Positions 15,507 to 55,248 of a stretch of 64,000 bases of DNA are shown here, piece by piece. Both the position numbers and the translations under genes were made by a program. The stretch is from positions 1 through 64,000 of IMG/VR virus record IMGVR_UViG_3300012964_000001; one strand, 5' to 3'. Every line of letters begins with the position of its first letter. The first letter of the stretch is position 1. The notes beneath the pieces were generated by a model. It saw nothing but the letters and a program-made list of their open reading frames with translations. It searched no databases and was not told where the DNA came from. This DNA is from a virus.

Positions 15507-16565
15507 TCATTCAAAAAGGCTCCTTTGCTTATCCAACGGAAGACAGTGCGGACTGAACCAAATGGTCTCTTGTTCGCGGTTGTCATTATCAACCGCTGCA
15601 TACCCGCGTGCACCCTTCCAGCGGTACACAGTCCAAGTCGTCGGCATTCGAGCGGCGTGCTCGTCGAAGTATCCGCAGAGCGCAATCCGTAACTCTGGAT
15701 CATCACCATGCTCAATCGCCCATTCTCTGACTTGCTCAGAGAGTCCGACTTCGTCGTGGTTGTAGATGTGATCCTTTCTGAGTTCTGTCAGATAGGGCGC
15801 ATCAAGAAATACCGCTACTGGGCTTCGTCCCCCAACGTTCCTGCCTTTTCCGAGCACAGCTGGCGTAACGATGCGCTTCCAGTCTCCACAGACCATCCGG
15901 ACTCGGCGCAGTCGAGAAGATAATGCCCGAAACCACTCCATCGCCGGCGGAGCCGCTACCCCGTTTATTCCACGGTCATTGCCTAGCGCTGGCAGATGGA
16001 TTCCTAGTCCGTCGGTACGGAGATACGGGATCTGTTTCCACCCTTCGGTAGTTAGGTTCGCGTGAACCCCCTGTCCGGAATTCAGGTTAGGTCTCGGTCT
16101 TCCGCGCTTAATCCCGCCGCACCACCCGGTGCCGATCCACTGGCAGATGCCCCAAACCCACCATCCTGCAACCTGAACATCGTAAGCATTTGGATCCGCT
16201 CGGAGTTCCTCGGTCAGGATCTCGAGCCGTTGGATGAGCCAAGTGTGCCGGGCGTGAAGATCGAGCTCCGAGATTGGCCAGTCGCACCAACGTGCCACCT
16301 CGTCAGGGGCCGCTTGGATGGCGCGCCAGAAATTCACGACGCCACCATCGATGTCGTTGATGGTCTCGATCTTGCCAGCGCCTCCAGGCCTTCCCAGGAG
16401 CACAGCGCCACTTCCCCAGAATGGTTCAATGTAGCCGGGCACGTCCGGCCCGAACGCTCTCCACACAATGCCGGAGACCCTGCGTTTGCCTCCGTGCCAC
16501 GGGTAGGGAGCACGTAAGTCGCTGCACTCATTCATGCACGCTATGGATTGTTCAGTATCCTGCAC
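15507..16565 (-). CDS. dam: DNA N6-adenine methyltransferase, Dam/D12 class
   Basis: YPWHGGKRR, EPFWGSGAV (FxGxG) and FLDAPY (DPPY-type motif IV). Confidence 0.8.
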   Translation of the reverse strand: MQDTEQSIACMNECSDLRAPYPWHGGKRRVSGIVWRAFGPDVPGYIEPFWGSGAVLLGRPGGAGKIETINDIDGGVVNFWRAIQAAPDEVARWCDWPISELDLHARHTWLIQRLEILTEELRADPNAYDVQVAGWWVWGICQWIGTGWCGGIKRGRPRPNLNSGQGVHANLTTEGWKQIPYLRTDGLGIHLPALGNDRGINGVAAPPAMEWFRALSSRLRRVRMVCGDWKRIVTPAVLGKGRNVGGRSPVAVFLDAPYLTELRKDHIYNHDEVGLSEQVREWAIEHGDDPELRIALCGYFDEHAARMPTTWTVYRWKGARGYAAVDNDNREQETIWFSPHCLPLDKQRSLFE

Positions 16566-17832
16566 GCGGCCTCTCGTTGGGCATCGGGATATCGAAGTCC
16601 CCGTCCGTCATGGCGGCCTCTTCCATGCTGGGGGAGTCAGCTGGGTCCCGGTACTGATCCAGGTAGTCGTGTGCCGAATCGTGTTCGTACTCGGGCTCGA
16701 AGTTCGCCGTAACCTGGTTCCACCTGAGTGCCACGATCCCTTTGGTTCCGACCTTTGCTTTATCGATGTTGATGCACTTGGTTCCAGCCGTGAAGTGGTG
16801 GTCTGGGTTCTTTGGGTCGGTCCAGTCGCTCTGAAGTTCGAACCCCATCAACACCGCCTCGGCTGCGTTCACGACGTCCTTGCTCTCGCGGACCCGGTAC
16901 TTACCCGGCATCTTGTTCGATTCATCGGGCGTGATTTGGGAACAGATAATGAGCGGTGTCTTGGACGACTTGCACGTGTGTGTGATCCGTTGCGCCGTTT
17001 CTCTGAACCGGACTCGCTCGTCCTGATAGTTCTTGGAAGCTGGGATTGTCTGCAGGTAGTCCACAATCACGAGCGCTACCTGGTACTCGAGCACCATGGC
17101 GGCTATATGTTCACAGAGTTCCGTTTCTGGGATGTCGCGACCATCGAGGTAGATCGGGGTCCGTTCTCCCTTTTGAACCACCGCAGAGATCTTTCGACGA
17201 TCGATGTCATCGAGCTTGTGGTCGCGAATTCTCGAAGCTTCTACGCCAGACCGGCGTGCCAATAACCGATCGCCGTAAATCGACTCATCATCCTCGGTCG
17301 CGACAATGAGTACGACCTTCCCGAGCTTCAGGTTCTCGTCGGCAATCGAAATTGCGAAGGCCGTTTTTCCCCAAGAGGTCTCGGCCGCAAGGATCCATCC
17401 ATGGCCCGGCTGAATTCCTCCGGTATGCCTGTCTATGCGCCAGTTTCCGGTGGTGATGACGCCTTGACGTTCCACCGATACCGATCTTTGACCTGATGAT
17501 CGCAGAAGATCTTCAACCGACAGAATTCTGGGGCTGGGAATTCGTCCGTGTAGATTTCGGTGACAGAAGTCGCACACAGCCACCAGTTCGTCGTCCCGTT
17601 CCGCACCTATATGTGCATAACTCAGATGATGAACCTGTGTGCATAGTTCTCGCTGACATATTTCACACTGTCCTCCGGACCGCGCCCGGATGCTGGTGCT
17701 GCGTGTTATCCACCACTCTGAAGCTAGATACTCTTGATATTGTTCTCTGTTCATCGTTTTATAAACCTCCACGAGGCCTCTCGTCATCGAGCCGCGATTA
17801 TTCTGCGTAGTCGTCCAATTCGTCGTACTCAC
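16552..17832 (-). CDS. DnaB-C/RecA-like ATPase with N-terminal HNH-like zinc module
   Basis: N-terminus CEICQRE...VHHLSY...CDFCHRNLH. C-terminus has ETSWGKTA (Walker A) and VDYLQTI, as in the DnaB C-domain. Confidence 0.7.
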   Translation of the reverse strand: MSTTNWTTTQNNRGSMTRGLVEVYKTMNREQYQEYLASEWWITRSTSIRARSGGQCEICQRELCTQVHHLSYAHIGAERDDELVAVCDFCHRNLHGRIPSPRILSVEDLLRSSGQRSVSVERQGVITTGNWRIDRHTGGIQPGHGWILAAETSWGKTAFAISIADENLKLGKVVLIVATEDDESIYGDRLLARRSGVEASRIRDHKLDDIDRRKISAVVQKGERTPIYLDGRDIPETELCEHIAAMVLEYQVALVIVDYLQTIPASKNYQDERVRFRETAQRITHTCKSSKTPLIICSQITPDESNKMPGKYRVRESKDVVNAAEAVLMGFELQSDWTDPKNPDHHFTAGTKCINIDKAKVGTKGIVALRWNQVTANFEPEYEHDSAHDYLDQYRDPADSPSMEEAAMTDGDFDIPMPNERPRAGY

Positions 17833-19270
17833 CGCTAGTTAGGTTATCGAAGCGGGTGTACTCGCTTGAAAACCTGGTCTTCACTACACCAGTCGGACCG
17901 TTGCGCTGCTTGGCGATAATGATCTCGGCGATTCCCCGATCGACGCTCTCGTCCTTGAAGTAGTACTCGTCCCGGTAGATGAACAGGATGGTGTCGGCGT
18001 CCTGTTCGATGGCTCCACTCTCACGGAGGTCGCTCAGCTGCGGACGCTTGTCCTTCGTCGTTCGCGTCTCCACCGATCGATTCAGTTGCGACAAGGCCAT
18101 CACCGGCACCCGGAGTTCCTTTGCCAATTGCTTCAGGCCACGTGACAGCTCGCTGATCTCTTGCTCCCGGCTGTGGGCGTCACGCCTTCCGTGCATCAAT
18201 TGCAGGTAGTCGACAACGACCAATCCTAGCTCATTGGGAAGCCCACAATCGTCCGTCGCCCGAGCAAGCTCAGCCTGAATCCGTCGCACCTTCGCCCGAA
18301 CCTCGAGCAGCGTGATCGCCGGAGTGTCATCGATCCAGATCGGCATACTTCCGACACGCTCCGCCGCATCGGTGAGCTTGCTCCAGTCCTCAGAACGCGG
18401 CTGACCCGAGCGTATGCGCCCGAGGTCAACGTGCCCCTCGCTGGCCATCAGCCGCATACCAAGCTGTTCTTTGGGCATTTCCAGACTGAAGAACGCAACC
18501 CCTTTGCCCGGGGTCGGCTGGATGGGATTTCCAAGCGGGTCAGTATCGAAACCTGTGTTCTTCGGACGAGCGACGTTGACGGCGATATTGATGACCAATG
18601 CACTTTTTCCCATCCCGGGCCTACCTGCGACGATGAACAGGTCCCCTTTGTGCATTCCCGTGGTCTTCCGGTCGATCTCGGTGAACCCAGTCGGTACTCC
18701 CGACACACCACGGCCATTCTGGCTCGCCGCCGAGATTATCTTAAACGATTCAACCATCACGTCTTTGACGGGAACGATTGCCGTTCTGTCGGACGTATGC
18801 GCGATTTCGAAGACCTTCTGTTCGTGCTGGTCGATGTAACGCTGAACGTCCTGGACCTTTCCGTAACCCTCTGCCGCGGTGTTCTGGCATTCTTGGATGA
18901 GCTTGCGCTGACGCCACAGCTCGACCAGTCGCTTGGCGTGCGTCTCGACATTGGCTACCGCAGGCGTCGCATCCACAACCTGAGCGAGGTAGGGGGTGCC
19001 GCCAATCTGCTCAAGCTTCCCGCGGTCCCTAAGCCATCCAGCGATAGACACTTGGTCCACTGGCCTACCGGACTCACGAAGGGACCACGCTCCCTCGAGG
19101 ATCAGCCGGTTGGCATTCGAGTAGCAGTGCTCGGGCCGGAAGAAGCTCGCGACCTCGTCTGCGAGTTCCGCGGACAGCAGGACCGCGGACAGCACCGTGG
19201 CTTCGGCATCTAGGTCCGATGGGGGAACGCGTCCGACCATAGGTCCCGGCTCTGCAGCCTGGTCAGCCAA
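17798..19270 (-). CDS. dnaB: replicative DNA helicase DnaB
   Basis: PPSDLDAEATVLSAVLL, GRPGMGKSAL, VDYLQLM and QLNRSVE. Confidence 0.9.
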   Translation of the reverse strand: MADQAAEPGPMVGRVPPSDLDAEATVLSAVLLSAELADEVASFFRPEHCYSNANRLILEGAWSLRESGRPVDQVSIAGWLRDRGKLEQIGGTPYLAQVVDATPAVANVETHAKRLVELWRQRKLIQECQNTAAEGYGKVQDVQRYIDQHEQKVFEIAHTSDRTAIVPVKDVMVESFKIISAASQNGRGVSGVPTGFTEIDRKTTGMHKGDLFIVAGRPGMGKSALVINIAVNVARPKNTGFDTDPLGNPIQPTPGKGVAFFSLEMPKEQLGMRLMASEGHVDLGRIRSGQPRSEDWSKLTDAAERVGSMPIWIDDTPAITLLEVRAKVRRIQAELARATDDCGLPNELGLVVVDYLQLMHGRRDAHSREQEISELSRGLKQLAKELRVPVMALSQLNRSVETRTTKDKRPQLSDLRESGAIEQDADTILFIYRDEYYFKDESVDRGIAEIIIAKQRNGPTGVVKTRFSSEYTRFDNLTSGEYDELDDYAE

Positions 19271-47119: not shown

Positions 47120-50100
47120 ATGATCCGTGTCGTACAGTTGTCTGATTCCCATTTTCAGCAGAATCGTCGATTCGACGAGTGCATTCGGATGCATGACCTC
47201 ATCGCCGAGCACGTTGAGCGATCGAAGCCTGACTTGGTGGTCCACAGCGGCGAGCTCTATGATCGTCCATCGACACCGCGGGAGCGTGAGGCTGTCGCTG
47301 AATGGGTCCAGCGCATTGCCACGGTCTGCCCGATTGCAATAGTCCGCGGAAACCCGGTTCACGAGGCCGCACAAGAAACCGAGCATCTACGGCGTCTGAG
47401 CTCTACACATCGGATCTTGGCGGTCGAGACGCCCATGATGATGACCCTAGGGGGTGTCGAGCTCTGCATGTTCCCTGCACCGACCAAGTCGGGTGTGCTC
47501 ACGGCCATCGGCCAGATCGGGATCGAACAGGTCAACCAGGTAACCTCCGAGGCGATGCAGAGCCTTTTGAGATGGATGGGAGACAAAGCTACATCGATAG
47601 GTCTTCCACGCATGTTCGTCGGCCATATGATGGTTCGTGGCTCTCGGACAAGCCATGGGCAGGAACTCATCGGGGCCGACTTAGAGCTAGGTCTAGAAGA
47701 CCTGGAACTGGCGAACTGCGATGCATACGCACTCGGCCATATCCATCTTCACCAAACCTTCGAGGCGTTCGGAAAGCCGATTGTCGCCTATTCAGGGAGT
47801 CCATACAGAACCTCTTGGGGAGAGACCGAAGACAAGGGGTTCATCGACTGGATGTTCAAAGAAACGCTCGATGGTTGGCGTGCAGAGTGGAAGTTCATCA
47901 AGCTACCGGCGACCCGGATGCTGCTCATCGAGCCCGAATGGTCCGGAGACGATTGGGCTCCGGGTCCCGGGTGTCCGACCCTGATGGATCCCGTGGAGGG
48001 ATCAGAAGTCCGTCTGCGCTACCGGTGTGAGAGCTCGCAGCGCACCCAGGCCGCCGCAGGGGCCGCCAAGCTACGGGACGAGCTTCTGTCCCGGGGAGCC
48101 GTCTTGGTGAAGCTTGAGCCCATCATCGAGGTCCACAACGCCGCGCGCGCCCCCGAGATTGCGCTGGCGCGCGGGATGGCCGAGAAGCTCCCGGCATTCT
48201 GGGCCGCCCGGGGTACCACCCCAGAGGAACCCCGCCGGTCCCGACTCATCGAGTTGGCAGGCCAAATCGAGGCCAATACACCCCGCCCGGTGGGCATTTC
48301 GACCGGCGCCGCCCTCCTAGACTGGATCAAGCTCCGGGGAATCGGTCCCTTCAAGGGGACGGTGGAAGTCGACTTTCGCGACCTTCCACCGGGCATCGTG
48401 GCGTTCACGGGTCGGATTGGCAGCGGGAAAACGACTCTGATGGAGGCCTACGCTGCAGCGATGTACCGCCGGCTCCCGACGTCCGAGCGGGGCCTCCTGT
48501 CCAAGATGGCCGTCTCCCGCGACGCGTTCGTGGACGTCGGCATCCAGAACGGGCAGTCCCTGCGCATCGTCCACGCCATCGATGGCGGACAGAAGACCCC
48601 CGGGTGGGAGGTCTCGGTCTATGACCGCGGGGTCGAGTCCGCGGAATCTCTCACCGGGTCGAGCAAAGTATCGGCATTCGACGAGTGGCGGGAGACCCAC
48701 ATGCTGCCCCCGGAGATCTTCCTGGCAGGGCCGTTCCAGGCCCAGGGTGCCAATGCCCTGGTTGCCGCCACGGATTCCGAGAGGGCGTCGATCATTCTCA
48801 GGGCTCTCGGACTCGAGTACTACGAGACCATGGCCGAGACGTTCCGGAAGCGCGCCAGCGCGGCCCGGGAGGAACTCGAGAAGGCCACGGCACGCGTGGA
48901 CGACGAGCGTGCCCGCGGGGGCGACGTCGCTCAGTGCGAGCAGGCGTTGGTCGACGAACGCATGGGTCTTGTCCCATCCCAATGGGCGCTCCAGGTGGCC
49001 CGAGACGCTCTCACGGCCGCCGAGCAGGCGCTCCGTGAGCACTCCAGGGACCAGGAGGCCTACCTGGAGGCCGTCGGCGCGCGCGGGGAACTCGAGTCCA
49101 AGATCCGGGACAACCGCGCCCAGTACGCCGACTTGACCGAGCGGATGACGAACAACCAGAAGCGTCTGGCTCAGAAGCCGAAGATCCAGGCCGCTGTCAA
49201 ACGCTCAGACGAGCTTCGGGTGAGCATTTCCGCTGCCGAGGCGGAGCTCGCACGGCTCACCGCCGAGCACCAGGGGCTCCAGCGGGAAGAGCTAGCTTTC
49301 CGGCAGGAATCCGCTGGTCACAAGATTTCATCCGGGTCGGCGCAAGAGCGGGCCGAGTCCGCCAAGCGGCGCCTAGGCCGAAAGCCGGAGATTGACGCCG
49401 CCGCGGCCAGCGTTCCGGGGCTTCGCTCCGCCTGGGAAGAGTCCTTGAAAGCGGCTGAGGAAACGGTGCATAGGGTCCGCGGAGACGTGGCGGCTGCCGA
49501 AGCCGAGCTCGAACGGCTGCGCGGCTTGCGGGTGGTTGGGTCAGAGGACCGCATCATCGGACTCCGCTCTGGTCTCGAACAGGTAGTGTCATTGGCAATC
49601 ATAGGGCGCGGCACCCATGAATGCGCACAGGGTACCCTGCACCGTGACGATGAGGCAGCCACGTTGGCGCTGGAACTGCCGACTCAGATCACCCGCCAAG
49701 CCGCCGAGGTCACTCGGCTCCGTAGGCTGCTGGAGACCGTCACCCAACAGTCCGGGGAGAATCGGGACGAGGCCGCGCGGGCGCTCTCCAAAGCCGAGCA
49801 ACTGGCGGCTGAGTCAAAGCACCTGGATGCCGACCAGCAGGAACTCGAGTCCGCGCTTGGAGACCTACAGCGCTACCAACAGGCCGAGCGCGCCTGCATC
49901 GCCAAGTCCACCGATACGATCCAGCGTCGCACGAAAGTCCAAGAACTACGGGACTCCCTGGAATTCACTGAGCGCTCTTCCATGGAAGAGCTTCAAAAGC
50001 TAGCACCGGTCGTCGCCTACAAGGAGCAGGCGGACAAGGCGGAGGCCCGAATCGAGCAGCTAGAACGGGAGCTTGCGCGTATCGACTCCGAGCATACCGA

Positions 50101-50845
50101 ACTCACCCAAAAACTTGCCCGAGGTCCGGCGGTGGTCCTTCCCCCTCCACCACCGCCGGATGTCTCGGGCCTACGGATTTCCGTAGGCAACGCCGAAAGC
50201 CAAGTGCAGGCCGTGACTACCGCAATCGCCCGCGCCGAGCAACGGCTTGATATGGCCCGGGAGAGCGCCGGTCGGGTCCTGGAGCTCGAGGCCGCTCGGG
50301 CACAACGGGCGGAAGCGCAGGCCGATTGTCAGCGTCTGGCTGAAGACCTCGGCAAGAAGGGTCTCCAAAGCGCCGAGATTGACGCCGTGGGTGCAGAGCT
50401 CACGGCAGACACGAACGACTTGCTTCATTCCTGCCTCGGAAGCACGTTTACGGTCTCGGTGGAGACAACCCGCACCGTTGACAAGGGCAAGCGTGAGGTC
50501 GATGCCTTGCCGATTATAGTCTTCAACTCTGACGACGGATACGAAGGCGAGGTCCGGACCTACTCCGGAGGTCAGAAGGCTCTGATCGGGGAAGCGCTGG
50601 CGCTCGCGCTGACGATTCTGTCGTGCCGGCGCGCTGGAATCGACCATGGGTTGACACTCATACGTGATGAACCAACGGCATCGTTGTCCCCTGAAGATGC
50701 GCGCGCATATGTTTCTATGATGCGCGCCGCTTCCGCGATCGTTCACGCACGACACGTTCTCTGCATCACGCACAACGACGCTGTCAGTAACGCTGCAGAC
50801 GTCCAGGTGAAGGTAGCCAACGGAAGCGTGGAGGTAATCCAGTGA
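47120..50845 (+). CDS. fused SbcD-SbcC (Mre11-Rad50-like) nuclease/ATPase, 1241 aa
   Basis: The N-terminal phosphoesterase has LSDSHF, VHSGELYD, VRGNPVHE and ALGHIHLHQ. Then come Walker A FTGRIGSGKTT, a long coiled-coil, ABC signature YSGGQKALIGEALALAL, Walker B LIRDEPTASL and H-loop CITHND. Confidence 0.85.
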   Translation: MIRVVQLSDSHFQQNRRFDECIRMHDLIAEHVERSKPDLVVHSGELYDRPSTPREREAVAEWVQRIATVCPIAIVRGNPVHEAAQETEHLRRLSSTHRILAVETPMMMTLGGVELCMFPAPTKSGVLTAIGQIGIEQVNQVTSEAMQSLLRWMGDKATSIGLPRMFVGHMMVRGSRTSHGQELIGADLELGLEDLELANCDAYALGHIHLHQTFEAFGKPIVAYSGSPYRTSWGETEDKGFIDWMFKETLDGWRAEWKFIKLPATRMLLIEPEWSGDDWAPGPGCPTLMDPVEGSEVRLRYRCESSQRTQAAAGAAKLRDELLSRGAVLVKLEPIIEVHNAARAPEIALARGMAEKLPAFWAARGTTPEEPRRSRLIELAGQIEANTPRPVGISTGAALLDWIKLRGIGPFKGTVEVDFRDLPPGIVAFTGRIGSGKTTLMEAYAAAMYRRLPTSERGLLSKMAVSRDAFVDVGIQNGQSLRIVHAIDGGQKTPGWEVSVYDRGVESAESLTGSSKVSAFDEWRETHMLPPEIFLAGPFQAQGANALVAATDSERASIILRALGLEYYETMAETFRKRASAAREELEKATARVDDERARGGDVAQCEQALVDERMGLVPSQWALQVARDALTAAEQALREHSRDQEAYLEAVGARGELESKIRDNRAQYADLTERMTNNQKRLAQKPKIQAAVKRSDELRVSISAAEAELARLTAEHQGLQREELAFRQESAGHKISSGSAQERAESAKRRLGRKPEIDAAAASVPGLRSAWEESLKAAEETVHRVRGDVAAAEAELERLRGLRVVGSEDRIIGLRSGLEQVVSLAIIGRGTHECAQGTLHRDDEAATLALELPTQITRQAAEVTRLRRLLETVTQQSGENRDEAARALSKAEQLAAESKHLDADQQELESALGDLQRYQQAERACIAKSTDTIQRRTKVQELRDSLEFTERSSMEELQKLAPVVAYKEQADKAEARIEQLERELARIDSEHTELTQKLARGPAVVLPPPPPPDVSGLRISVGNAESQVQAVTTAIARAEQRLDMARESAGRVLELEAARAQRAEAQADCQRLAEDLGKKGLQSAEIDAVGAELTADTNDLLHSCLGSTFTVSVETTRTVDKGKREVDALPIIVFNSDDGYEGEVRTYSGGQKALIGEALALALTILSCRRAGIDHGLTLIRDEPTASLSPEDARAYVSMMRAASAIVHARHVLCITHNDAVSNAADVQVKVANGSVEVIQ

Positions 50846-51347: not shown

Positions 51348-51935
51348 ATGCAAACGAACCCAATCCTCACCCTTCTTGAGTTGGTGGACTTCCACCTATC
51401 GACCACAGAACGTGCTCCAAAGGATCTTCCTGCAGAGGTCCAAGCTGTCGAAAAGAGACAACGAGAGCTCTTGGCGTCCAAAGAATGGCTTATGCATTTG
51501 AAGGATGCAGAATGGACCACTCCATTCAACTGCCGAGACTGCGGTGCAAAGCCAGGTGATCTTCATATACCAGGCTGCGACACAGAGACTTGCGCGATCT
51601 GCGGATGGCAGGCAATTAGCTGTCCTTGTGTCAAGAAGTTCGCACCGTCAAAACCTATCATTGACGATGAAGACGCAGACCCGACCCCAGAGATGTGGTC
51701 CGCATACGATTCGGCTGTCTCTGCCTTAGGCGGACGTATCCAATGGTCAGGATTAGCATCCGGGGTGAGAGAGTGCGTCGAGTTTGGATGGTTCGCGCGC
51801 TGGGATGAAGAGCTACAACGTCATGTAAGATGCGACTATGCTCATCCAAACGCTTTGCCAGACCTCAACCGGGTCACGCACCCATGTGGTGAAGCTAAGT
51901 GGGACAAAAAACTGCGCCGCTTCGTGAAGCGGTAG
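51348..51935 (+). CDS. Cys-rich hypothetical protein (about 195 aa; TTG 51330 alternative)
   Basis: CRDCGAKPGDLHIPGCDTETCAICGWQAISCPC is a zinc-binding-like cluster. Confidence 0.55.
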   Translation: MQTNPILTLLELVDFHLSTTERAPKDLPAEVQAVEKRQRELLASKEWLMHLKDAEWTTPFNCRDCGAKPGDLHIPGCDTETCAICGWQAISCPCVKKFAPSKPIIDDEDADPTPEMWSAYDSAVSALGGRIQWSGLASGVRECVEFGWFARWDEELQRHVRCDYAHPNALPDLNRVTHPCGEAKWDKKLRRFVKR

Positions 51936-51947
51936 CCTAGAGTCAAT

Positions 51948-52169
51948 ATGACAATCGATAGCACCTTACCCGATCCAGAGGACCAAGAAGTCTGCGCGAT
52001 CAGCGTCAACCCATCCGAATACGCCGCGATGACTGAGTTGATCGCGGGCGCGGAAGATAGCGTCTGGACCATTCTAGTAATCGCCGGCCAGCTCGTGCCT
52101 TCGGGGCAGATACGCTGCTCCTGTTCCGACGGAACTAGTGTCTGGTTGGATTGGGCTAGGACGTCATAA
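51948..52169 (+). CDS. hypothetical small protein (73 aa) directly upstream of the Cas12-like gene
   Basis: It lies 12 nt after the previous stop, and its stop is 2 nt before the next ATG. It shares a 13-nt start-region repeat with the next gene. Confidence 0.45.
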   Translation: MTIDSTLPDPEDQEVCAISVNPSEYAAMTELIAGAEDSVWTILVIAGQLVPSGQIRCSCSDGTSVWLDWARTS

Positions 52170-52171
52170 CG

Positions 52172-54094
52172 ATGAATACCATGCACACGACAATCGATAG
52201 CGCCCTCGGCGCCACCCGGAGTGGGGAAGCTACTGGCTTGACGCTCGACAATCATGACGCCCCAGTGGCGTCACACGTTGCACCCGCGAAAGCGGTAGGG
52301 CGGACTCCACCGCCCGAAGTCGAACAAGTCAAGACAGATGCCACCCAGGTAGCACCGGGGGCCCTATCGATAGTCCGTGCCACTTGTCGAATCCTGCTGG
52401 ATGTGGCGGTGCTCGCCGCAGACCGACGCGAACACATCGCCAAACGATGCGGGGGTACCGAAGGCGGGTGCAAGGCCTGCCAGCTACAGCAGGAGCTTCG
52501 GGGAGCCCAACGAGAAGCCGTTCGGGCCGCTAATGCGGCGATGCGGGTTCATTGGCGTGCCGACGCCGATATCTTGGATCAGGCGCTTCTTGCCACCGGC
52601 GCTCCGCCGGCAAAGGCCGCGGACTGGAAGCGCTTCGCCCAGATTGACCCAGAGCGGCTGGTTCGCGCGGTATCCCCGGGACTCAGCAGGGGAGAGACGA
52701 AGCTTGCAGCAGGTGAGCTTGTGAAGACCAGTAAGGCCGATAAGACCTATTTGTCGACCTATCGCCTAGTCCGTGTGATCGCCCCAGATCTCCCAGGTGG
52801 TATCGCGTCGGCCATCTCGGATTCCGTTCAGTCCAAGTGGCAGCGTGAACGGTTCGCCTCTCTGGTCCGCTGCACCAAGTCTCCACCGCACTATACGGGG
52901 ACAATGCCACTGCCGCTGCGCGCCGCCGATTGCGCACTGACCCATTGTGTGGATGATGACTACGAATTCACCTTTGCTATTCGCGGTGGCCTCGGGCACC
53001 GATGGACGCTCCCAATCTCCGCACGCGACGGTGCCACCAAGAAACGCTATCTGGCGAAGTTACTGTCCGAACTCGCTGGCTCGAACGTGAAGTTCGGAGC
53101 CTGCCAGATCTCTGAGGACCGTATGCGACCAGGTCGCTGGTTCGTCCGTATCGCCTACACCCGGCGAGTCGATGCAGCTGTCGTGGGCAAGAACGACTGC
53201 GCAATCCATCTAGGCATCGTCAACTTCATGGCTGCCTTAGGCAGCGATGGAGAACGTTTCATCATCGAGGGCAACGACATTCGGACTCACCTTGCGCAGA
53301 TCCAGGCACGCCGGAGAAGCTATCAGCGACAGATCAAATACAGCAACCGGACCGGCCGCGGTAGAGAAGCAGCGTTGGCGGCGAGTCGAAAACTAGCAGG
53401 TGCACACGAACGTTGGGTCGACACGACCATCCAACGGATCGCACGATCCATCGCAAACTGGGTCAAAGAGCACGGATACAGCCGCGTCTACATGCCGGAT
53501 TTTACCCGAGTACGGGACTCCGTCCCGGAGCTTCTAGAGCGTAGTGACTCGGTCTACCAGTGGCTCCAAGAGTGGCCATACTACCGGATGCAGCAGGCCA
53601 TACGGTCTTGCCTCGAGGAGGTAGGCATCGGTTGCAATCACGAATGCTCGGGTAGCCGAGCTAGGCCCCCCACATGCAGCTGTATCGCGGAACGTGGTAG
53701 CGGAGTAGATGATGGTGTCCTATCGCGTCATGCTTGCCCGGCATGCGGAGAGACCGAGGCGCTAATCGAAGACCTCGGGATCAGGACCTTCCGCTGCGAA
53801 AGCTGTGGTCACCATGGTCCTCTGGACGTAGTATTGGCCGAGCTAATCCTCGCTCGCGGTCGCGAGCGCCGAGGTGACTCGGACTCGCTTATAGGAGAAA
53901 ACGGCTCGAAGCTTGGACCACCAAAGGGCAAAAACGGAGGCGCTCGCAAAGCGTCACGTAAGTACCCGAAATCAAAAGGTCCTCGCCGGGCGGGGTCAGA
54001 AGAGAGTTCAGTGTGCAACGTGATTGGAGCTATGGCCCGCCGACCAGCGGCGCAGCAGCTCCTTCGTCAGAAGAGAGTTCAGTGTGCAACGTGA
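52172..54094 (+). CDS. compact TnpB/Cas12-fold CRISPR-associated effector candidate (type V-like) with non-canonical RuvC motifs; ORF runs into the array
   Basis: WED-like GRWFVRIAY. RuvC-I-like CAIHLGIVNFMAALGSDG, a helical insert, then RuvC-II-like YSRVYMPDF. Zinc ribbon CPACG...FRCESCG, followed by GPLDVVLAELILARG in place of D-x-NAA-x-NI. About 607 codons precede repeat 1, and the stop TGA 54092-54094 lies inside repeat 2. Confidence 0.75.
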   Translation: MNTMHTTIDSALGATRSGEATGLTLDNHDAPVASHVAPAKAVGRTPPPEVEQVKTDATQVAPGALSIVRATCRILLDVAVLAADRREHIAKRCGGTEGGCKACQLQQELRGAQREAVRAANAAMRVHWRADADILDQALLATGAPPAKAADWKRFAQIDPERLVRAVSPGLSRGETKLAAGELVKTSKADKTYLSTYRLVRVIAPDLPGGIASAISDSVQSKWQRERFASLVRCTKSPPHYTGTMPLPLRAADCALTHCVDDDYEFTFAIRGGLGHRWTLPISARDGATKKRYLAKLLSELAGSNVKFGACQISEDRMRPGRWFVRIAYTRRVDAAVVGKNDCAIHLGIVNFMAALGSDGERFIIEGNDIRTHLAQIQARRRSYQRQIKYSNRTGRGREAALAASRKLAGAHERWVDTTIQRIARSIANWVKEHGYSRVYMPDFTRVRDSVPELLERSDSVYQWLQEWPYYRMQQAIRSCLEEVGIGCNHECSGSRARPPTCSCIAERGSGVDDGVLSRHACPACGETEALIEDLGIRTFRCESCGHHGPLDVVLAELILARGRERRGDSDSLIGENGSKLGPPKGKNGGARKASRKYPKSKGPRRAGSEESSVCNVIGAMARRPAAQQLLRQKRVQCAT

Positions 54095-54901
54095 TTGGAG
54101 GGACCTCTACCGCGGCCGAAATTTCGACATCGATCAAGTCAGAAGAGAGTTCAGTGTGCAACGTGATTGGAGGTTGCATGAATACCGTCCAGGACGAGGC
54201 CGACCGAATGTCAGAAGAGAGTTCAGTGTGCAACGTGATTGGAGGTAGCGCGGGGCATCGCCCACCATGACGACCGGCATGGTCAGAAGAGAGTTCAGTG
54301 TGCAACGTGATTGGAGGGACATCCGCGGAGGTCGAAATCTCTGCATCTAGCAGTCAGAAGAGAGTTCAGTGTGCAACGTGATTGGAGGGAGGTGACGCCC
54401 GACGGAGTGCGGCCGGTACCCCCCGTCAGAAGAGAGTTCAGTGTGCAACGTGATTGGAGGTTCGTAATCGAGGTGGAGCACCTTCCCTTGCCGGACCGTC
54501 AGAAGAGAGTTCAGTGTGCAACGTGATTGGAGGTTGCGCCAAGCAAAGGGGACCTGGACGGCGTTCGGCTGGTCAGAAGAGAGTTCAGTGTGCAACGTGA
54601 TTGGAGGCAGGATGGAGGATGCCGCGGGCGATGGAATCGACGAGCTGTCAGAAGAGAGTTCAGTGTGCAACGTGATTGGAGGCTCGGTGGGAGCTCGTTC
54701 AGCGAGCTAAGAAGAGAATGTTAGAAGAGACTTCCATGTGCAACGTGGTTGGAGGTGGATACACTCGAGCGACCCATGCAAAATGTCGGATGGTCAGAAG
54801 AGGTTCCGGTTCCAAGGCAAAGGCCGATCGGGCTGGCGCAGTCAGAAGAGAGTTTCAGTGTGCAACGTGATTGGAGGTCCCATGTGCAACGTGAAGGGAG
54901 G
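53995..54901 (+). CRISPR. CRISPR array: 10 x 36-bp repeat GTCAGAAGAGAGTTCAGTGTGCAACGTGATTGGAGG plus decayed distal copies
   Basis: Repeats start at 53995, 54066, 54138, 54210, 54282, 54353, 54425, 54498, 54572 and 54647; only repeat 1 differs, at its last base. Spacers are unique and 35-39 bp long. Decayed copies are 54720-54755 (5 mismatches), 54793-54807 (truncated), 54841-54877 (1-nt insertion) and a 3' half-copy at 54881-54901. Confidence 0.95.
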
Positions 54902-54937
54902 CGCCCGACTCCAAGGAATCGAAGTCAAGATCTAAGC

Positions 54938-54966
54938 TTGACACGGCCGGCCGAACATCTTATTAT
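54938..54966 (+). promoter_or_regulatory. near-consensus sigma70 promoter TTGACA-17-TATTAT just downstream of the array
   Basis: TTGACA 54938-54943, a 17-nt spacer, then TATTAT 54961-54966. It is followed by hairpin CGCGGCC-AAA-GGCCGCG and the ATG at 55021. Confidence 0.55.
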
Positions 54967-55020
54967 ATGGCCATGACGCTCTGAACGCGCGGCCAAAGGC
55001 CGCGGGAAAGCCGGCCTCCG

Positions 55021-55248
55021 ATGGAAAAGACCCTTAGAACCGAAACCAGCACTCCGCTGCGACTGATTGGCCGCGTCGCGCTTCCGGACGCCAGAGACGC
55101 CCTGCTCACCGGGGATGACCTCTGGGGCCTCTGGAACGCTTCCCTAGAGCTCGTAGACGATGGTCAGACTCCCGACCTGGTTCAGTTCGCCATCACGAAC
55201 GACGGGGCGGAGAGCTTCCTCGAAGAGACCGGGACCGGGGCGGCGTAA
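55021..55248 (+). CDS. hypothetical small acidic protein (75 aa)
   Basis: First ORF after the promoter, with a TAATG overlap to the next gene. Confidence 0.5.
   Translation: MEKTLRTETSTPLRLIGRVALPDARDALLTGDDLWGLWNASLELVDDGQTPDLVQFAITNDGAESFLEETGTGAA

Follow-up and report, generated by a model that had tools for sequence, protein, structure and literature searches.

The stretch of DNA analyzed here (hereafter, the window) comprises positions 1 to 64,000 of the IMG/VR virus record IMGVR_UViG_3300012964_000001, i.e., 64,000 nucleotides (nt), and all coordinates below refer to it. It belongs to a phage, as shown by genes encoding a DnaB-type helicase, a collagen-like tail fiber, a GH25 endolysin, and an SbcCD-like protein. 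On its plus strand, we found a compact locus made up of three parts: a structured RNA resembling a trans-activating CRISPR RNA (tracrRNA; 52195-52365), a Cas12f-like effector open reading frame (ORF; 52172-54094, 640 codons counted from the ATG at 52172) whose 5' end is overlapped by this RNA, and a CRISPR array (53995-54682) that begins inside the 3' end of the same ORF. Given how tightly the tracrRNA, effector, and array are packed, they probably form one transcription unit. An earlier inspection of the letters, made without database searches (hereafter, the sequence-only reading), had proposed that the RuvC catalytic signature of this effector is broken and that the protein may be a naturally nuclease-inactive, RNA-guided DNA binder.

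The effector displays the split RuvC domain and the zinc ribbon (TNB domain) of TnpB-type proteins that are typical of type V effectors, as judged from Pfam and from fold matches to Cas12f, TnpB, and Cas12. More specifically, Pfam OrfB_IS605 matched with 33.7 bits (cut-off, 30.5), Cas12f1-like_TNB matched weakly at residues 521-554 (E = 6e-4, under its curated cut-off), and the NCBIfam model guided_TnpB of the TnpB family matched at E = 9e-11, which is also under the curated cut-off. The CxxC...CxxC zinc ribbon of the TNB domain (C522, C525, C542, and C545; 53735-53806, plus strand) occupies columns that are nearly invariant among the relatives described below. Between the RuvC core and the zinc ribbon lies a Cys-/Ser-rich insertion of ~33 residues (residues 488-520; 53633-53731), which was modeled with low confidence and was seen only in the window and in its relative L032 (72% identical).

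Comparison with L032 also indicates that the true protein start is probably the TTG at 52238 (gene at 52238-54094, plus strand) and not the ATG at 52172, since the reading frame upstream of this TTG is not kept between the two sequences. The TTG of the window is an ATG in L032, the rate of synonymous substitution (dS) between the two is 0.32 in the first 42 codons and 1.83 elsewhere, and residues 1-60 are disordered in the AlphaFold model. Residue numbers in this text count from the ATG at 52172; a start at the TTG shifts all of them by -22.

Our alignments uphold the central observation of the sequence-only reading, namely, that the RuvC signature is broken. Motif I (CAIHLGIV, 53198-53221) carries His346 (CAT, 53207-53209) in place of the catalytic Asp, and motif II (RVYMPDFT, 53483-53506) carries Pro442 (CCG, 53495-53497) in place of the catalytic Glu, followed by Asp443 (GAT, 53498-53500). 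In motif III (PLDVVLAELILARG; PLDVVLAELI; 53819-53860), Asp552 (GAC, 53825-53827) is kept, and the NAA part has diverged. The triad of the window effector is H-P-D in place of the intact D-E-D of Cas12f. When the protein was compared with all PDB sequences using phmmer, Cas12f came first (9i8y, E = 1.6e-16; AsCas12f 8j12 and 7wju, ~6e-14), and the pairing obtained was aIHLGi with gIDLGv, ympdF with qmEDL, and cgHHGPLDvv with cgYEANADyn. A profile built from 62 family sequences matched AsCas12f 7wju at E = 2.3e-63 and placed the columns of motifs I, II, and III on residue 225, E324, and D401, respectively, with H346, P442/D443, and D552 of the window aligning with D225, E324(+1), and D401 of AsCas12f. 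The 7wju chain has Ala at residue 225 where 8j12 has Asp, and we interpret the Ala as an engineered dead mutant. Both HMMER comparisons (phmmer and family profile) thereby reproduce the alignment originally made by eye, including its statement that only the motif III Asp is kept. For motif II, the assignment of the Glu position to Pro442 was borne out; the other option that had been raised, i.e., that Asp443 represents a shifted catalytic Glu, was rejected, as this column matches the second residue of E-D-[FL] in the family and in canonical Cas12f. It is acidic in 91% of the family and D or N in canonical Cas12f.

An AlphaFold2 model of the effector, computed from the family alignment, reached a mean predicted local distance difference test score (pLDDT) of 81.8 and a predicted template modeling score (pTM) of 0.76. 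In this model, H346 closes the strand 342-347, P442 closes the strand 438-442, and D552 starts the helix 551-566, with pLDDT values of 85-95 at these sites. A Foldseek search of the model against the PDB returned AsCas12f as the top match (E = 5e-23; template modeling score [TM], 0.76), with the sigmaE-type dCas12f structure 9n9c below it and Cas12m2 far below (TM, ~0.4). Thus, the structure-guided alignment places His and Pro, rather than acidic residues, at catalytic positions I and II. From the sequence and the modeled structure, we predict that the effector has lost its nuclease activity: with the motif I Asp replaced by His and the motif II Glu by Pro, two-metal DNA hydrolysis should no longer be possible.

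These replacements are not confined to the window. An exhaustive profile search of 1.84 billion representatives retrieved ~105 close full-length relatives, after which there was a sharp fall to ordinary Cas12f/TnpB-like proteins. Among these metagenomic cluster representatives, Asp is absent from motif I in all 102 compared at this position (N, 70; H, 16; T, 7; R, 6; Q, 2; and C, 1), Glu is found in motif II in 76 of 103 (~74%), and Asp is found in motif III in 96 of 102, with D or E present in 100% of the full-length members. NED is the most common triad (56/99), and others include HED, NDD, HPD, RPD, and TAD. DED is the triad in 33 of the 45 more distant proteins included in this alignment, canonical Cas12f-like ones among them. 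In a neighbor-joining tree, which is identity-based and carries no support values, the Asp-less proteins form one clade beside the DED Cas12f-like proteins, and the window falls into a subclade that also lacks the motif II Glu (HPD, HVD, RPD, TAD, and TSD). H-P-D is found in L032 and also in L006, which is 43% identical to the window. Collectively, the loss of the motif I Asp is a trait of the family and not a single mutation, and the comparison of orthologues that the sequence-only reading had suggested therefore agrees with its view of His346.

The family comprises ~100 clusters at 50% identity, and the 10 members that we looked up all came from Logan, JGI, or ENA metagenomes and had no meaningful names. 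A scan of 185,579 species-representative genomes with one peptide pattern yielded no relatives, nor did a tblastn search of GenBank phages. The sole match among plasmids was a distant transposase, a fold search of BFVD returned just generic TnpB or "transposase" viral proteins, and a second, word-indexed protein search using the family alignment brought no gain. We could not find this large metagenome-only family described in the literature, having set it against the V-U, "altered," and array-linked dCas12f groups by their published descriptions and with the survey of phage-encoded CRISPR systems by Al-Shayeb et al. 2022 (Cell) lying outside this comparison.

The same residue counts bear on the possibility that the effector is still a nuclease, acting either through a non-canonical site (e.g., His346 as a general base together with Asp552, in a one-metal arrangement) or on another substrate, such as single-stranded DNA, RNA, or its own CRISPR RNA (crRNA) precursor. 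An active pocket under selection would be in line with the essentially invariant motif III Asp and with a motif II Glu in ~74% of the family, and TnpB/Cas12 branches with rearranged but probably active sites have been published (PMC10691335). The window effector, however, lacks two of the three carboxylates, a Pro at the Glu position cannot ligate a metal, and the family alignment revealed no conserved acidic column in the RuvC region that might compensate. Moreover, Cas12m2, which has a comparable HDD site, binds one Mg2+ without cleavage, and its reversion to DED did not restore cleavage (PMC10442227). We therefore regard retained nuclease activity as unlikely.

The effector is under purifying selection. 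Comparison of the window with L032 gave a ratio of nonsynonymous to synonymous substitution rates (dN/dS) of 0.13 overall, with a value of 0.11 in the RuvC half (codons >300). One might suppose that the locus is a decaying relic, i.e., a pseudogenized Cas12f with a fossil array and no current function, given that two catalytic residues are gone, that the ORF has no stop of its own before the array and reaches repeat 2, that L032 contains an in-frame stop, and that the distal repeats are degenerate. This seems very improbable to us. The low dN/dS, the 10 perfectly identical repeats, and a tracrRNA-like RNA with covarying positions, including compensatory changes between the window and L032, show that the effector is not a relic; the fold is intact and confidently modeled; and the Asp-less family has diversified into its many clusters while keeping arrays.

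At the 5' end of the gene, the segment 52195-52365 folds with a minimum free energy of -80.5 kcal/mol (z = -4.3), with a long-range helix present and both anti-repeats unpaired, and nucleotide conservation between the window and L032 begins near 52200. A covariance model from which the window was left out matched 27 of 30 homologue loci (L001-L031 minus L004, the phage of the window itself), the matches invariably lying just upstream of the gene, and it matched the window with 25.4 bits. In an alignment of 24 loci, which was fitted to this model, 94% of the cells are paired, versus 71.5% in shuffles; 11 of 15 pairs show compensatory changes, and slid controls collapse. Rfam gave no match in 51800-55100.

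The RNA also appears to be suited to pairing with the repeats. For 11 of the 12 loci, the stretch of 8-10 nt that forms the longest complement to the repeat of that locus lies in the same register on the plus strand, 44-139 nt upstream of the conserved IVRAT strand, and the complements have a mean length of 8.9 nt for cognate pairs versus 6.2 nt for non-cognate ones. Complement length and register were decisive here; an anti-repeat search by RNAduplex energy around the locus and a matrix of cognate and non-cognate energies were discarded as uninformative, being dominated by GC content. Across the family, the RNA has the order stem 1, GAAGGCGAG, inner stem, GGGGAAG, GCGCTCGCCAAT, hairpin, anti-repeat, and final hairpin. 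The loop of stem 1 is a second anti-repeat, and it covaries with the 3' end of the repeat (CCTCC/GGAGG, CTGCA/GCAGG, and CCGCA/GCGGG). Thus, a conserved structured RNA, here predicted, carries two repeat-covarying anti-repeats, as would be expected of a Cas12f-type tracrRNA.

On the plus strand of the window, these elements are GGGGAAG (52223-52229), GCTCGACAAT (52243-52252), a hairpin (52256-52272), anti-repeat 2 (CACGTTGCAC, 52274-52283, complementary to repeat nt 19-28 and placed by the cognate register across loci), and a hairpin after it (52284-52295). They are followed by a hairpin that matches stem 1 of the family model (GGGCGG-ACTCCA-CCGCCC, 52298-52315), whose loop CTCCA (52305-52309) is anti-repeat 1 and is complementary to the repeat 3' end TGGAG, and by GAAGTCGAAC (52316-52325). 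The order of the modules is permuted in the window (52223-52325) and in L032 (~205-330) relative to the 27 other loci, in that the 3' half, which includes the anti-repeat, precedes stem 1 and the GAAG-GTCGA strand. In the window, GTCGA:TCGAC forms the long-range helix; L032 and the other family members have GGCGA:TCGCC in this place, a difference that amounts to a compensatory double change. A tandem duplication followed by loss is one possible origin of the permutation.

At the other end of the gene, the array consists of 10 identical repeats of GTCAGAAGAGAGTTCAGTGTGCAACGTGATTGGAG (followed by G in 9 of 10; 35/36 nt) and nine spacers of 35-39 nt (53995-54682, plus strand), and the last perfect repeat is separated from the first degenerate one by a tenth spacer. 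This result confirms that the phage carries a multi-spacer array, as noted earlier from the letters. The degenerate distal end (54720-54901, plus strand) contains a repeat with five mismatches (54720-54755), a 10-nt piece of a repeat near 54793, a repeat into which 1 nt has been inserted (54841-54877), and, 4 nt further on, a half repeat (54881-54901) in which both tracr-pairing segments are kept. No stop codon precedes the array in the effector frame, which runs through repeat 1 and spacer 1 and ends in part of repeat 2 (53995-54094). The last 33 codons of the effector are therefore CRISPR sequence and would alter if the first spacer were altered. In several relatives, the stop codon lies inside the first repeat or a few nucleotides before it.

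An array adjacent to the effector gene is conserved among the relatives, as expected for a type V effector. Of the homologue loci, 25 could be assessed because at least 300 nt of sequence follow the gene. In 15 of them, an array of at least three repeats begins at or within ~100 nt of the stop codon, and the effectors linked to these arrays include HPD (L006, 12 repeats), HDD, HGE, and SGD triads. The repeats vary among loci but share the 3' end TGGAGG/TGCAGG, which fits type V crRNAs that have the handle before the guide and are transcribed in the direction of the gene.

We searched for the targets of the spacers in several ways. No target was found within the window at up to 8 mismatches, and peptide-level matches of the spacers to the window were at chance level only. 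Using blastn, the window spacers gave no match in 50,697 phage records and one 28-nt match only (E = 0.7) in 72,556 plasmid records, and exact 22-mers of spacers 1-3 had no target in IMG/VR. A comparison of 123 spacers from all arrays with the window and all loci recovered shared arrays only, and ~80 spacers pooled from the relatives' arrays gave one marginal match among isolate phages, to a Gordonia phage (E = 0.03). A candidate self-targeting or autoregulatory guide, suggested by the resemblance of the sequence from 54902 onward to 52303-52340, was rejected (local alignment score, 19; shuffle mean, 16.8; maximum, 28).

Within the array, spacers 2 (54102-54137) and 5 (54318-54352) are identical at 24 of 35 positions without gaps, with a score of 13 compared with 2.9 +/- 1.4 for shuffles, and 6 of the 11 mismatches fall in one codon phase. 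It is suggestive, though only that, of two diverged alleles of one protein-coding gene, a pattern to be expected of immunity toward related elements and not of promoter regulation. Directly after the array, we observed a near-consensus sigma-70 promoter (54938-54966, plus strand; TTGACA, 17 nt, and TATTAT; 11 of 12 matches) facing small ORFs from 55021 onward; a comparable promoter was not seen upstream of the unit that the tracrRNA, effector, and array make up.

The array and RNA also speak to the idea that the effector is an anti-CRISPR decoy, in which a dead protein and a phage tracrRNA sequester the crRNAs of a Cas12f-type system of the host. The concept has been described for a phage II-C2 variant with a Cas9 whose RuvC is inactivated (PMC12669027, PMC11656645), and the phage studied here has no adaptation genes that we could find. 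Yet it carries a 10-spacer array of its own, with repeats that match the tracrRNA of the phage itself. Furthermore, when 22 nt of the repeat were searched for as an exact string, neither the 185,579 species-representative (GTDB) genomes nor IMG/VR contained them, and those genomes yielded no relative of the effector with the one peptide pattern. There is, in our view, only a very slim chance that a decoy explains this locus.

Turning to genome context, the homologue loci lie on contigs of up to 119 kb, and their flanking genes match PHROG families; IMG/VR contains one of the loci, and an integrase occurs in one. Across the 31 loci compared, we found no linked cas1/2/4, sigma factor, helix-turn-helix (HTH), or transposase gene, and the effector is the sole gene that the loci have in common. 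The neighbors of the effector in the window had no Pfam matches, a subset of the window ORFs having been scanned against profile libraries. Elsewhere in the window, two adjacent DnaB-like helicase ORFs occupy 16552-19270 on the minus strand, the first of which (16552-17832) has an HNH endonuclease match in its N-terminal part; the helicase gene may have been split or invaded by a homing element. Three small ORFs separate the CRISPR module from a 1241-residue fused SbcD-SbcC/Rad50-like protein upstream of it (Metallophos plus AAA_23/SMC_N; 47120-50845, plus strand).

Of the known systems, Cas12f (subtype V-F), and especially AsCas12f from Acidibacillus sulfuroxidans, is the nearest relative of the window effector by both sequence and fold (TM, 0.76). 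The two share their size class, the WED/REC/RuvC/zinc-ribbon layout, a guide placed 3' of the repeat, and a dual crRNA:tracrRNA guide with two repeat:anti-repeat duplexes, which in the window are predicted. Cas12f has an intact D-E-D triad and cuts double-stranded DNA, whereas the window has H-P-D and its whole family is devoid of the motif I Asp. In addition, the window family differs from Cas12f in having an extra N-terminal region with a conserved Cys-rich segment, and the window locus differs in that its tracrRNA lies upstream of and overlaps the ORF, its array abuts or overlaps the stop codon, and it resides in a phage without cas1/2/4.

Functionally, the closest analogue and best precedent is Cas12m (subtype V-M; e.g., MmCas12m2). 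Cas12m is naturally non-cleaving, keeps arrays, binds DNA tightly, silences transcription, and has graded triads (HDD, HEK, NED, and DND; PMC10442227, PMC11013384). The H-D-D site of Cas12m2 holds one Mg2+ and the non-target strand without cleaving, and silencing occurs by binding (PMC10442227). The window effector has a non-canonical RuvC triad, as does Cas12m, and its H...D...D-like pocket resembles the HDD site. It does not belong to the Cas12m clade: the family profile matched UnCas12m4a at E = 0.0074 only, and Foldseek gave TM values of 0.36-0.40 to 8hhl, 8hio, and 8pm4. Also, Cas12m uses a crRNA alone, which it processes itself, and is mostly plasmid-borne, whereas the window has a tracrRNA-like RNA and is a phage.

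Another relevant group is dCas12f-sigmaE, which is likewise derived from Cas12f and RuvC-inactivated; it is known to be an RNA-guided DNA binder, which for the window effector is a prediction. These proteins are bacterial, mostly from Bacteroidetes, are C-terminally truncated with part of RuvC gone, mostly use single chimeric guides, and have sigmaE or HTH partners (PMC13472631). A separate cluster of dead Cas12f proteins beside CRISPR arrays may repress efflux genes (Hoffmann et al. 2026, PMC13472631). Unlike dCas12f-sigmaE, the window effector has an intact C-terminus with the motif III Asp and zinc ribbon, keeps its array, and is encoded by a phage, and no adjacent rpoE or HTH gene or other partner was found among the window neighbors or in the 31 loci. 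The family profile matched 9n9c at E = 6e-11 and active Cas12f at 1e-50.

These comparisons are pertinent to a further explanation, in which the effector recruits a partner (a sigma factor, transposase, recombinase, or other nuclease) under RNA guidance in the manner of dCas12f-sigmaE or Cas12k. A recruiting role is known for dead type V effectors (PMC13472631; for Cas12k, PMC11656645), and in L001, an HVD member that is 41% identical to the window and whose locus gave no match to the tracrRNA model, a weak Sigma70_r4 gene lies 3.3 kb downstream. Against this, the conservation between loci is limited to the effector gene, the window neighbors gave no Pfam matches, RuvC motif III and the zinc ribbon are kept where dCas12f-sigmaE is truncated, and the dCas12f structure 9n9c is matched far less well than active Cas12f. 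We thus consider a recruiter quite unlikely, and the recruitment entertained by the sequence-only reading finds no supporting partner gene.

That reading had also pointed to Cas12k and the TldR repressors as precedents, both of which are TnpB/Cas12 relatives with an inactivated RuvC that use an RNA guide to bind DNA. Cas12k (subtype V-K) is found in Tn7-like transposons with tnsB/tnsC/tniQ and very short arrays. TldR is derived from TnpB, uses a single omega-RNA-like guide encoded downstream, without an array, and lies beside the genes that it regulates. Neither is the nearest precedent, since the nearest relatives are Cas12f nucleases and the best functional parallel is Cas12m. In the window, we found a phage context without conserved neighbors instead of Tn7-like genes and a short array with transposon ends (among the subset of ORFs scanned), and the structural similarity to Cas12k is low (TM, ~0.3). 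With regard to TldR, the window differs by its multi-spacer array and by a tracrRNA-like RNA placed upstream, and the scores of TnpB chains are far below those of Cas12f.

The concept of a RuvC-dead type V effector as such has strong precedents, and inactivation arose many times. It recurs in V-C, V-K, and V-M and is predicted in V-O and V-P (PMC12669027), and large branches with an "altered" catalytic site have been described in Cas12f, V-U24, V-U43, and V-U44 (Altae-Tran et al. 2023, PMC10691335). The V-U groups, 15 of 40 of which are metagenome-only like the window family, were compared by description only.

Taken together, we consider it likely, though well short of assured, that this locus is a compact phage-borne type V module whose Cas12f-derived effector binds DNA under RNA guidance without cutting it and acts by silencing, as Cas12m does. 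The Cas12f fold is kept in the effector, as are the zinc ribbon and the guide-RNA apparatus, and since two acidic residues have been lost while the protein, guide scaffold, and 10-spacer array are conserved, it most likely binds rather than cuts DNA. We envisage that the crRNAs would pair with the tracrRNA via the two anti-repeats and then load the effector, probably as a Cas12f-like dimer. The complex would form an R-loop on complementary DNA, remain bound there, and, like Cas12m, keep the target from being transcribed or replicated. If the HDD site of Cas12m2 is a guide, His346 and Asp552 may retain one Mg2+ and clamp the displaced strand; a motif III Asp that hardly varies and a motif I position often occupied by Asn or His would fit such a clamp. 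Competing phages or other mobile elements are the likely targets, with host genes being less likely. Since no spacer target was found, we can only infer the biological role.

Several observations weigh against a binding-only module. The inactivity of the effector is read solely from the identity of its residues, and a non-obvious alternative catalytic geometry may exist. That Glu and Asp are kept in most members, with NED as the prevailing triad, hints at a residual metal-dependent function, such as RNA processing or nicking, which may still be present in some guise. Ten of the 25 assessable loci (L001, L003, L007, L014, L017, L018, L022, L025, L026, and L031) have no array of at least three repeats, and some family members may have moved to fixed guides or other roles. 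L032 has an in-frame TAA (L032 positions 1413-1427; TAC in the window) four codons before M-P-D-F, which splits its gene into two called ORFs and could be a sequencing error, real pseudogenization or decay, or recoding. Finally, neither the 10 spacers of the window nor the ~80 of the relatives led to a protospacer, the latter having been searched in isolate phages.

More tentatively, and at somewhat less than even odds in our estimate, the family as a whole might constitute a phage-associated, metagenome-only, Cas12f-derived branch at the level of a subtype, in which the motif I Asp was lost once at the base and which then persisted as a long-lived, single-transcript module for natural CRISPR interference (CRISPRi) that silences competitors or host genes. 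In this scenario, the tracrRNA of the window and L032 would have been circularly permuted, with its helices kept by compensatory changes.

If the binding-only reading is true, phages harbor natural dCas12f CRISPR modules that form a sizeable family not annotated to date, and binding-only interference, known from plasmid-borne Cas12m and from bacterial regulators, would extend to lytic or temperate phages. The layout of the locus, with a tracrRNA overlapping the 5' end of the ORF and an array forming its 3' end, is unusual in itself. The natural series of triads (NED, HED, NDD, HPD, RPD, and TAD) could be used to study how a RuvC pocket turns from a catalytic site into a DNA clamp. Compact effectors of ~500-600 amino acids with defined guide RNAs could, if already optimized for binding, serve as CRISPRi or base-editor scaffolds. 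The question would then be what a phage gains from silencing rather than destroying its target; possibly, it represses a co-infecting relative or a host gene without provoking DNA-damage responses.

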